Source of the DNA: Escherichia phage vB_EcoS-885R8
Direction: 5' to 3' (one strand)
Length of the DNA stretch: 22,017 nucleotides
Sequence record: ON470602
Positions 4,670 through 7,168 of this stretch are shown here, piece after piece. Below the pieces are notes generated by a model. It was not told the DNA's origin, did no database searches, and worked only from the letters and a program-made list of their open reading frames with translations. Each line of letters begins with the position of its first letter. The stretch's first letter is position 1. The position numbers and the translations under genes are program-made.

Positions 4670-7168
4670 CTACATTTTCTCCTGAAAAACATGATTTGAC
4701 ATCCCACGGGATTTATCTGCATAGTCACGTTCAAGTTGCAGACGCTGATTGTTATATTCACGTTCAATCCGCAGTAATTCCTGCTGGCGTTGCTGATTTT
4801 TATCGCCAACCCCATAACCAGCAATCTGAATATCATACCCCTGTTGACGATTATCAATCGAAGCCTGCAATAAATCACGCCATGCAGATATTTCGGCGGA
4901 TTCCTTGATTAGCCTGTTATTTTTTTCAATCGCAACATTTTTCTCCATCAACGCGGTTATTTCTTCCCGGTGTAAGAGAAGCGATTTCTGATCCTGGGTT
5001 AATTTCGATGACGGTCGTGACTCCAGGTCGGCAATCTGCTGACGCCACTTAACCAGTTCCTGTTCAGAGGAACTTAATTTAACGGTTAATTCAGTTTGTG
5101 AACTTAGTAACGCATTCTGTTGATTCAGATGATCAATCATTCGTTGGGCAGCATCATCCGAATAACCTTTCGCCTTTGGTTGCTTTGGATCTTTATAACG
5201 CTCATTTATTTGAGCGATAAAATTATTATATTCTTCCTTTGAATACTGACTCTTTAGCTTTTCCAGTTTTGCAAGTTCACTAGCTCTCTGCTGCTCCCGG
5301 GTCTGATATTGTTTTGAAAAGGCATCTGCTCTCTGTCTGAGTTCAATTCCTTCCTGTTGTCGCTTGTTGTAATCGTTTATTGATGAATTTAGGACGTCCT
5401 GAGCAATTTTTTCTGCTTGAAGTACGCCCAATTGCTGCTTTAATCGTGCCAGCCTTTTATTTTGAGCTCCGCCATCTCCAATGCCACCTAACCCGAAAAC
5501 TCCGGGTCGGGTATTTTTTTCTATTTCATCAATTTGACGGAGAACATCTGAGATTTTTTGATCAAGGGAGGCCTCACGGCCAATGTCCAGCATGGAATCC
5601 CATGCCCATTTTGCGGAGTCTGCGACAGCTTTCCATGCAGTCTCAAGATAACCAAGATTTTCTTTAATCTGGTTGGTGCGCTGGATCATTGAGGATGAGT
5701 ATGCTTCTGTCGCAATGCGGGCGGCCTCCTGCTGGTTCCCTTCATCCTGTAGCGCCTTAATCTGGTTATAAGTCGCAATTGTCAGAAAATGGTACTGATC
5801 ATTAAGTTTTGATATGGCACTGACAGGATCCTTTGCAATTTCATTGAAGTCATTAACCAGTTGTTCGGTTGATATTCCTGTTACTTCGCTCGTTTTTACT
5901 ATCGCTGTCGTCACTTGCTCCAGCGAACTGCTCGCTACCTTTCCCGAACGCACAAGCTGGTTTAATACTGCCGCCGCAGCGCCAGTTGTCGAATCAGCCG
6001 CATTCCCGGCACGTTGAGCTATATCGGCCAATTGCCCGCTGGTTGTCCCCAACTGATTTCCGGTAAGAATAAGAGATTTATTAAATTCGTCCTGCTCCTG
6101 AGAGCCTTTATAGTAAGCCAGCCCTAAGACGCCAACGGCTGCTGCGGCCAGGGTAAAAGGATTAATTAATCCCAGCACATAAGAACCAACACCTTTGATC
6201 GCCGGGCCAATCCCACCGAACATATCTTTTAGCTGGCCGCCCTGCTGCATTAACACCATAAAAGGCGACTGACCAGTGGACAACCCAACAACAATATCCG
6301 TCATTTGTGCAGGCAACATGCGCATAGCAAAAGCCGTTTGTTTTGCCGACATTCCGGTTTTGCTTAATTGAGATTGAGTAACCTCAAGCTCACTCCGCAT
6401 AGCACGAAGTTTTCCAGAAAGTTCCTCATACATTTCAGGAGAGAGCATCCCCTTAGCTTTTGCTTCATTGAGCTGTTTCTGTTGTTCTACCAGACGATTA
6501 AAAGCAGTTCCGACAGGGTCAAGTTGAGCAATCAGACGTTGCAAAGCAGCAACCTGTTCATCATGCGCTTTTGCTGCTTCTCGCTCTGCCTGAGCCTCTC
6601 CGGTAAGCTCTCGCCGTGTTTCCTGTATTTTTCGGCTATAATTCTCAAACTGAGAACCATTTATTTTCCCGGATGCAAACGCAGCATTAAGTTCATCCTG
6701 CTGTTGTTCAAGATTTCTTAGCGCCGCAGCCAGAGGGTCGATCTTGTCCAGCATTCTTTGAAAGGCCTGAGCCTGCGCTTCCTGCTGGGCGGCAGCAAGT
6801 TTTCCGGCCTTCTCGGCTTCTCTCTGCGCTTGCGCAACCCCGCTCAATTCCTCTGTGGTTTCATTAAGTTTACGGACAAGAAATTCATATTCTTCTTTAT
6901 CAATAAGCCCTTTATCGAAAAATTTCTTTAATTCAGAATAGCGTCGACCGACAGTATCAATTGCGGCACCAACTGGATCAATAGCTGCTTTTAATTTTGC
7001 GAGCGCGTTCTTCTCATCTTCTGTTGCCTTAGTCACTTTCCCTGCGCTATTTGCAGCAGTTTCCCCGGCCTGCGTCATTTTGACTAATGAGGAGGTCAGA
7101 TTGTCAGCATTATTTTTTGCTCCAGTGCTATCAATAATTATTGCGAGACGCGAGGTTTGCTCTGCCAT
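4670..7168 (-). CDS. tail tape measure protein, N-terminal 832 codons, ending at an in-frame amber codon
   Basis: 832-aa ORF with coiled-coil and tandem repeats near the N-terminus, a hydrophobic/Gly-rich central segment ([18 protein letters not shown]...), and position between the tail chaperones and M-like gene; GGAG 9 nt upstream of the ATG. Confidence 0.85.

Follow-up and report, generated by a model that had tools for sequence, protein, structure and literature searches.

Three old, diverged tandem repeats of a helical unit in the N-terminal part of a lambda-type tape measure protein, and their copy number among relatives

Tape measure proteins and repeats in described siphophages

The tape measure protein (TMP) of phage lambda, the 853-residue gpH, lies as a trimer inside 32 tail-tube rings, its C-terminus being fixed in the tail tip (PMC10721106). 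In T1, the TMP is also trimeric and counts 957 residues for about 34 rings at a rise of 42 Å (PMC11945409). Both sets of figures come to about 1.5 Å per residue, which is the rise of an extended helix. Shortening of the TMP yields shorter tails in lambda and in TP901-1 (PMC3271669, PMC5099701), and for TP901-1 the size of the deletion is linearly related to tail length (PMC5099701). The N-terminal 154 residues of the TP901-1 protein are essential and no mere spacer, and according to the authors tail length is not set by the repeat region alone (PMC5099701).

Repeats are a described feature of TMPs. Copy number differs among relatives for the 11-residue W/F units (Belcaid et al. 2011, PMC3271669) and for the 29 repeats of the TP901-1 protein (Mahony et al. 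2016, PMC5099701). Both kinds have been proposed to ease duplication and deletion and thereby changes in tail length (PMC3271669, PMC5099701), and deletion of repeats in TP901-1 shortens the tail proportionally (PMC5099701).

The window considered here is the whole analysed stretch of 22,017 nucleotides from Escherichia phage vB_EcoS-885R8 (record ON470602), and its TMP also carries repeats whose copy number differs in related TMPs. These are otherwise of another type. The unit measures 63-80 residues instead of the 11 or 18 of W/F-type repeats, and they are marked by an Asp-Pro pair and a Gly rather than by spaced Trp/Phe. Indeed, a period of 11 or 18 with conserved Trp or Phe is absent, whereas periods of 80 and 73 residues with invariant Asp, Pro and Gly are found. 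Moreover, the array is N-terminal, ahead of the hydrophobic region, and its copies are old compared with those of the W/F type.

One close and structurally described relative is lambda gpH (PDB 8iyk, 8iyl, 8k35), of which residues 54-610 align with residues 267-814 of the window TMP (E 2e-51). Both proteins end in a tape_meas_lam_C region, and the lambda gene order V - G/T - H - M - L - K - I - J is common to the window. The difference resides in the N-terminal part, where gpH has about 53 residues and no unit before the TMP_2 domain, whereas the window protein has a 55-residue head followed by about 210 repeat residues, for a total of 1077 residues against 853. The T1 TMP, gp38 (PDB 9l9p), is homologous over residues 107-808 of the query (E 9e-48). 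As gp38 is resolved only at residues 921-956, it provides no structure for the unit. The TMP of Tls contains one clear unit (residues 42-106, E 1e-6) before TMP_2. Compared with the window protein, the T1 and Tls TMPs differ in their N-terminal head and have a smaller number of units, which have diverged further.

Another close relative is ynaA, a gene of the Rac remnant of E. coli K-12, which is 98.7% identical at the nucleotide level over the repeat region. It corresponds to the N-terminal 311 codons of the same TMP, including all three units. The Rac deletion and IS5 region truncate it past the beginning of TMP_2, whereas the window keeps a frame of 1077 codons with one amber codon. No publication dealing with ynaA or these repeats came up in a literature search.

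The tape measure gene and its neighbours

The window gene is a lambda-type tape measure gene (Table 1). Its product matches Pfam TMP_2 (PF06791) with 274.6 bits for a cut-off of 30.2 and TMP_4 with 86 bits at residues 671-748, as well as PHROG 24, 'tail length tape measure protein', at E 4e-257. In the read-through frame, residues 705-1040 match TIGR01541 (tape_meas_lam_C) with 219.4 bits for a cut-off of 104.75. The gene lies between a frameshifted chaperone pair of the G/GT type and a gpM-like gene (Phage_min_tail, 109.8 bits), as expected for a lambda-type TMP, and annotated relatives have the same order of chaperones, TMP and gpM. The G-like chaperone frame ends with ATA AAA AAG CCA TAG, and the -1 frame stays open between 7646 and 7332, where Pfam Phage_TAC_18 gives a weak match of 20.8 bits, below its cut-off. 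No Pfam model matches residues 1-266 of the TMP, except for a sub-threshold SHOCT match in unit 1. On the opposite strand, a plus-strand ORF spans 6368..6721 facing the repeats, and the related records that were looked at have no annotated gene there.

Table 1. Features of the tape measure locus in the window (positions counted from the first nucleotide of the stretch)
Feature	Position	Strand	Remarks
Tape measure ORF as found	4670..7168	minus	832 codons, ends with amber TAG
Full-length TMP frame	3935..7168	minus	1077 codons with the amber read as Gln; in-frame stop at 3935
In-frame amber TAG, codon 833	4670..4672	minus	CAG (Gln) in intact relatives
N-terminal head, residues 1-55, [17 protein letters not shown]...	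7004..7168	minus	Precedes the array; common to 1-, 2-, 3- and 4-copy homologues
Repeat unit 1, residues 63-142	6743..6982	minus	80 residues, long-tail type; 88.4 bits on the unit profile
Repeat unit 2, residues 143-215	6524..6742	minus	73 residues; 96.6 bits; tail one heptad shorter than in unit 1
Repeat unit 3, residues 216-271	6356..6523	minus	About 56 residues; 87.3 bits; partial, abuts TMP_2
Pfam TMP_2, residues 267-471	5756..6370	minus	Includes the MRMLPAQ motif (residue 282) and the hydrophobic segment
G-like tail assembly chaperone ORF	7640..8101	minus	YdaY-like, 153 residues; from position and annotation in related records; upstream of the TMP gene
Slippery heptamer A_AAA_AAG (7646-7652) and -1 extension	7332..7652	minus	T-like part of a G/GT-type frameshift product

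The frame encoding the tip-anchoring C-terminus is interrupted by the TAG at codon 833 of 1077, within the tape_meas_lam_C domain. This amber costs the window TMP its last 245 residues, including the part that is anchored in the tail tip in lambda. An intact 1077-residue homologue (ON470609) has CAG at that codon, which is the sole difference in an alignment of 141 nt. The locus of E. coli 266917_2 is 100% identical to the window, and RefSeq records its TMP as a pseudogene with an 'internal stop'. Of the 376 complete E. coli genomes carrying this stretch, 32 match a 60-nt probe placed around the TAG with 100% identity. As long as the amber at codon 833 is not suppressed, the window gene cannot provide a working ruler.

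Three homologous units

The earlier note had placed three tandem coiled-coil repeats of about 75 residues each in the N-terminal part of the TMP, at residues 62-270 or so. The interval that it gave, 6358-6985, corresponds to residues 62-271 of the ORF at 4670..7168(-), and the strings that it quoted begin at residues 63, 143 and 216 (nucleotides 6982, 6742 and 6523), which are the starts of the three units. The first two units count 80 and 73 residues. The third is partial, with about 56 residues: it is devoid of the A/Q/E-rich tail and continues directly into TMP_2, which starts at residue 267.

Smith-Waterman scores (BLOSUM62) reach 125 between units 1 and 2, 73 between units 1 and 3, and 85 between units 2 and 3. 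Composition-preserving shuffles have means of 26-32 with a standard deviation of about 5, so that z amounts to 16.3, 8.6 and 12.3, respectively, and none of 2000 shuffles reached the observed score. Profile comparison by hhalign was performed between sub-alignments of 18-19 homologues each, cut from a 20-sequence family alignment. It aligned the three pairs of units with probabilities of 98.8, 97.4 and 98.6% (P 6e-17, 1e-11 and 8e-16), all in register from position 1 to position 1. The copies are only 23-38% identical, but 25 units taken from different homologues form a gap-free alignment in which D9, P10 and G32 are invariant.

A helix-rich region of biased composition, which also weakly matches models of SMC and other coiled coils, might look repetitive through generic coiled-coil or low-complexity A/Q/E-rich similarity, with no true duplication. 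This reading deserves hardly any credence. Any 80-residue window of the remaining helix-rich TMP scores at most 36-45 against a unit, compared with 72-125 between units, and generic coiled-coil similarity is therefore no explanation. With the shuffles never attaining the observed scores, the hhalign P values down to 6e-17, and the Asp-Pro and Gly standing invariant, in register and without gaps across 23-25 units, it was ruled out.

At the DNA level, Tandem Repeats Finder detected no tandem array in this region, even at a score of 30, and the only direct repeats are short, chance-like families of two or three copies of 12-27 nt. The duplications are therefore old. Judged from the protein sequences, the three units are confirmed as homologous, old and diverged tandem duplicates. 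The reading of the earlier note is thus supported by the comparison, with three corrections, namely the truncation of unit 3, the predicted hairpin described below and the pseudogene status of the gene.

Predicted structure of the unit

Hydrophobicity has a strong heptad periodicity, with a power of 69, 63 and 32 at period 3.5 for units 1, 2 and 3 on a home-made score, whereas it is at most 16 at periods 3.6 and 3.67. For residues 56-270 as a whole, the corresponding values are 101 at 3.5 and 1.8 at 3.6. The label 'coiled-coil' is thus a fair one for the sequence pattern, but each unit also contains a Pro kink and a Gly loop, and for the lone unit AlphaFold2 predicts a helical hairpin, not a straight coiled coil.

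The AlphaFold2 model of 300 residues is of low confidence, with a pLDDT of 61 and a pTM of 0.27, but it predicts the same helix-loop-helix pattern three times. Unit 1 would comprise a helix at 65-85, a loop at Gly87 and a helix at 91-143; unit 2, a helix at 145-166, a loop at Gly167 and a helix at 171-216; and unit 3, a helix at 218-238, a loop at Gly240 and a helix at 244-271. In each case, a one-residue break at Asp-Pro precedes a 21-residue helix A, a Gly loop of 4-5 residues and a long helix B. The full module would be laid out as a short heptad helix, the Asp-Pro kink, helix A of 21 residues, the loop of 4-5 residues at the invariant Gly, and helix B ending in an EL-x-G-x-AQA-x-RE-A motif followed by an A/Q/E-rich tail. 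Conserved aromatics recur at a fixed position of the unit, as EE-Y/F or Q-Y/F.

The monomer model of a single unit, built from 23 aligned units, is confident, with a pLDDT of 92.6 and a pTM of 0.71, and adopts an antiparallel hairpin. With Foldseek, 54-56 of its columns can be superposed at 0.9-1.0 Å on generic antiparallel hairpins of helices, with E-values above 0.5; as these are not significant, the likeness concerns the fold type and is no evidence of homology. For the 300-residue model, Foldseek against the PDB returned nothing below E 0.5. A search of PDB sequences with the unit profile gave a best E of 0.048 for eL19, which is meaningless, and 0.79 for T1 gp38.

From the last part of helix A across the Gly loop into the first part of helix B, e.g., in [23 protein letters not shown], the unit resembles SHOCT (PF09851), which is a short bihelical domain, as is the SHOCT-like DUF1707 (PF08044). 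The window TMP falls short of membership in SHOCT, with 20.8-21.4 bits in unit 1 for a cut-off of 27 and no match in units 2 and 3. At E ≤ 0.01, three of the 23 units match SHOCT and one matches DUF1707, all below the cut-off. Distant unit-bearing TMPs pass the cut-offs (P0074 with 41.9 bits for SHOCT, P0060 with 27.8 bits for DUF1707), and a remote relationship is therefore possible. The TMP_3 model (PF20155) overlies the units of another distant TMP, P0067, with 48.9 bits. It matches one of the 23 units (E 0.004) and has no match to the window TMP at E ≤ 1, which places the latter outside that family.

Copy number among homologues

The unit HMM was run on 59 homologues of residues 1-290. Proteins that share the N-terminal 55 residues and TMP_2 have one, two, three or four copies, with the MRMLPAQ motif at residue 129, 223, 282 and 362, respectively. 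The comparison of repeat number that the earlier note had suggested thus bears out its idea of repeat gain and loss among TMPs, since the copy number differs in homologues and the TMP grows by 71±12 residues per copy. Indeed, across the 20 full-length proteins that have the N-terminal head of the window TMP, length equals 897 + 71(±12) × copies (r = 0.82, p = 1e-5, n = 20), although these proteins are not independent in phylogenetic terms. In the same 20 proteins, the start of TMP_2 shifts by 74.6 residues per copy, and the remaining TMP does not compensate for the copies (slope -3.6, not significant). When all unit-bearing TMP architectures are pooled, copies and total length are only weakly related (Spearman 0.23, p = 0.05, n = 73), and other TMP segments therefore vary as much.

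Named relatives illustrate this variation. The TMP of the window and of vB_EcoS-473R12 has three copies in 1077 residues, and that of Klebsiella ST405-OXA48phi1.3 has three in 1037. HK639 has two copies (1024 residues), whereas a single one is found in Klebsiella ST11-VIM1phi8.2 (965 residues), in MP29 (1185 residues) and, as one clear copy, in Tls (945 residues); lambda gpH (853 residues) has none.

On a larger scale, the profile of 23 units retrieved 558 clusters (50% identity) at E ≤ 1e-3 from 1.84 billion representative proteins, 129 of them at E ≤ 1e-10. The matching clusters are mostly TMP-sized, with 900-1200 residues. Among the best 150 of the 558 clusters, 86 have one copy, 30 have two, 17 have three, seven have four, three have five and one has 10, and in all those with TMP_2 the array extends up to the beginning of that domain. 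Spacings between units cluster at 63, 66, 73 and 79/80 residues, 70 of 91 being equal to 0 or 3 modulo 7. The Asp-Pro pair is present in 228 of 250 units and the Gly in 243 of 250. Some distant TMPs carry near-identical copies of 63 residues, with 5-6 in P0074 and at least 10 in P0067.

Traces of recombination between units

In the family alignment, P0008 and P0012 have a whole extra unit inserted, whereas P0033 has an in-register deletion spanning ELNGV (unit 1) to AKAERDA (unit 2). The head of the extra unit in P0008 is closer to unit 2 (48% identity, against 26% to unit 1), and its tail is closer to unit 1 (70%, against 43% to unit 2). The hybrid unit in P0033 is the converse, with the head of unit 1 and the tail of unit 2. 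As far as the sequences tell, P0008 and P0033 look like the reciprocal products expected from unequal crossover at ELxGxAQAxREA. Copies may thus be gained and lost through unequal homologous recombination between units, with the conserved EL-x-G-x-AQA-x-RE-A motif as one crossover point, and insertions and deletions within the unit tails would comprise whole heptads.

Possible roles of the array

With a probability of roughly 0.7, the array is considered to consist of three ancient tandem duplicates of a helical module of 63-80 residues that lengthens the head-proximal arm of a lambda-type TMP. The TMP trimer would fill the tail tube's lumen, its length determining the number of tube rings. 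If TMP length sets the ring number, then each copy of 73-80 residues should lengthen the tail, and an effect of unit copies on tail length may be expected by extension of the work on lambda, TP901-1 and T1 (PMC3271669, PMC5099701, PMC11945409). The predicted gain per copy is about 11-12 nm, or about three rings, for an extended unit, and about one ring for a hairpin. A hairpin kept inside the tube, if real, would therefore cut the gain to about one third. We infer both the oligomeric state and the conformation of the units in the tube.

Other roles can be considered for the same units. They might be iterated docking sites for the G/GT chaperones or for rings of the tube protein, with copies acting on assembly kinetics or solubility instead of length or besides it. 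The G/GT-type frameshift pair directly upstream and the aromatics at a fixed position of the unit are consistent with this, all the more as aromatics at regular intervals in the repeats of other TMPs have been suggested to anchor chaperones (PMC3271669, PMC5099701). However, the replacement of an 11-residue repeat of TP901-1 by alanines left infectivity unaffected (PMC5099701), and lambda gpH, which has zero copies of the unit, functions with a G/GT pair of its own. Docking is thus an unlikely explanation, although it would be compatible with a ruler role.

It is quite improbable that the array stands outside the ruler altogether, as a head-proximal adaptor to the terminator, the tail completion protein or the DNA end, or with a role after ejection such as spanning the periplasm, in which case copies would be neutral for tail length. 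The N-terminus of the TMP is at the head-proximal end, the TP901-1 protein requires its N-terminal 154 residues, in which its authors see a possible link to the terminator or connector (PMC5099701), the array is located just before the TMP_2 hydrophobic segment, and the lone unit is a compact hairpin in silico. On the other hand, about 210 helical residues in each of three chains far exceed the small TMP volume at the SPP1 connector, as cited in PMC5099701. Copies also vary from 0 to 5 without compensation elsewhere, unlike a fixed docking domain, and the conserved element by the N-terminus is the 55-residue head rather than the repeats. The copy-number data speak in favour of neither docking nor the adaptor.

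Regarded as length-giving modules of the TMP, the units form a well-defined but ordinary and unsurprising case of a known type of feature, and current views are unchanged because repeat-driven change of TMP length is already accepted. Nevertheless, they supply an alignable unit for one large TMP family, including the ynaA product of K-12, where Pfam is blank. The natural variants with 0-5 copies could be used to test how residues convert into tube rings, as an extended helix or as a folded hairpin, and could aid the design of tails of chosen length. A broader proposal, which is advanced tentatively and appears doubtful, is that the module is a widespread and unnamed quantal 'ruler unit' of siphophage TMPs. 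A hairpin would then be stretched or stacked in the tube, with lengths in whole heptads (66, 73, 80, 87, or 63, 126), a copy number reset by unequal crossover at the conserved motif and tail steps of a fixed number of rings, the units perhaps forming periodic binding sites for G/GT.

Distribution in E. coli

Out of 5426 complete E. coli genomes, 1071 carry the repeat region, and 1063 of these 1071 cover at least 80% of the probe. The three-copy state is thus nearly fixed in E. coli, and no ongoing change is therefore seen there. The window itself is a Rac-like lambdoid prophage, and the 'phages' of the ON4705xx records are in-silico prophages rather than isolated virions.

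Length variation of the repeat units

Among representative tape measure proteins (TMPs), the spacings from one unit start to the next fall into two heptad series, one of 63, 84 and 126 residues and the other of 66, 73, 80, 87 and 94 residues. Because of this, the insertions and deletions in the unit tails involve whole heptads, as exemplified by GKLAAAQ, which unit 1 has in its tail relative to unit 2. The N-terminal head, otherwise conserved, carries a 21-residue (three-heptad) insertion in the homologous TMPs P0030, P0033, P0036 and P0037.

Arrays of the Asp-Pro...Gly module are also found in two distant TMPs, P0074 and P0067, whose PhageMin_Tail/TMP_3 architecture, devoid of TMP_2, differs from that of the window TMP. 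Their module copies, each of 63 residues, are nearly identical, and these arrays are recent expansions. SHOCT, DUF1707 or TMP_3 models reach the Pfam cut-offs within them.

Features of the tape measure gene, its surroundings and its homologues
Feature	Location	Strand	Remark
In-frame amber codon	4670-4672	-	Gln833, CAG to TAG
YdaY-like ORF with -1 frame extension	7332-8101	-	slip site 7646-7652
ynaA	L010 (E. coli K-12 MG1655) 4987-5919		first 311 codons of window TMP
21-residue head insertion	columns 39-59 of alignment A2, following residue 38 of the window TMP		subset of homologues
Asp-Pro...Gly module array	P0074 residues 90-454		5-6 copies
Asp-Pro...Gly module array	P0067 residues 727-1600		at least 10 copies

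The tape measure gene and its neighbours

In the window, the TMP frame stops at the amber codon after 832 of its 1077 codons, and the identical locus is labelled a pseudogene by RefSeq. The 60-nt stretch containing this codon is found exactly in 32 of the 376 complete E. coli genomes having this part of the gene. The wild-type Gln at codon 833 would return under a supE (glnV) suppressor.

The K-12 gene fragment ynaA, hitherto uncharacterised, is the N-terminal part of a TMP, with 98.7% nucleotide identity to the window gene; it therefore spans the N-terminal head and all three repeats and ends with the first part of TMP_2.

Upstream of the TMP gene, the YdaY-like chaperone ORF (ydaY in K-12) ends with ATA AAA AAG CCA TAG, in which the heptamer A_AAA_AAG lies in the correct frame for a -1 slip. 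Past this site, 104 codons of the -1 frame can be read without a stop, leading into ORF 7332..7565, which weakly matches Phage_TAC_18. The heptamer and the open -1 frame constitute a programmed frameshift of the lambda G/GT type.

When window positions ~1-4000 are compared with 4000-22017, G+C is 0.50-0.58 left of ~3900 versus 0.43-0.49 to its right. As this step coincides with the boundary between the TMP and gpM/L/K/I tail-tip genes, it suggests a mosaic joint there.
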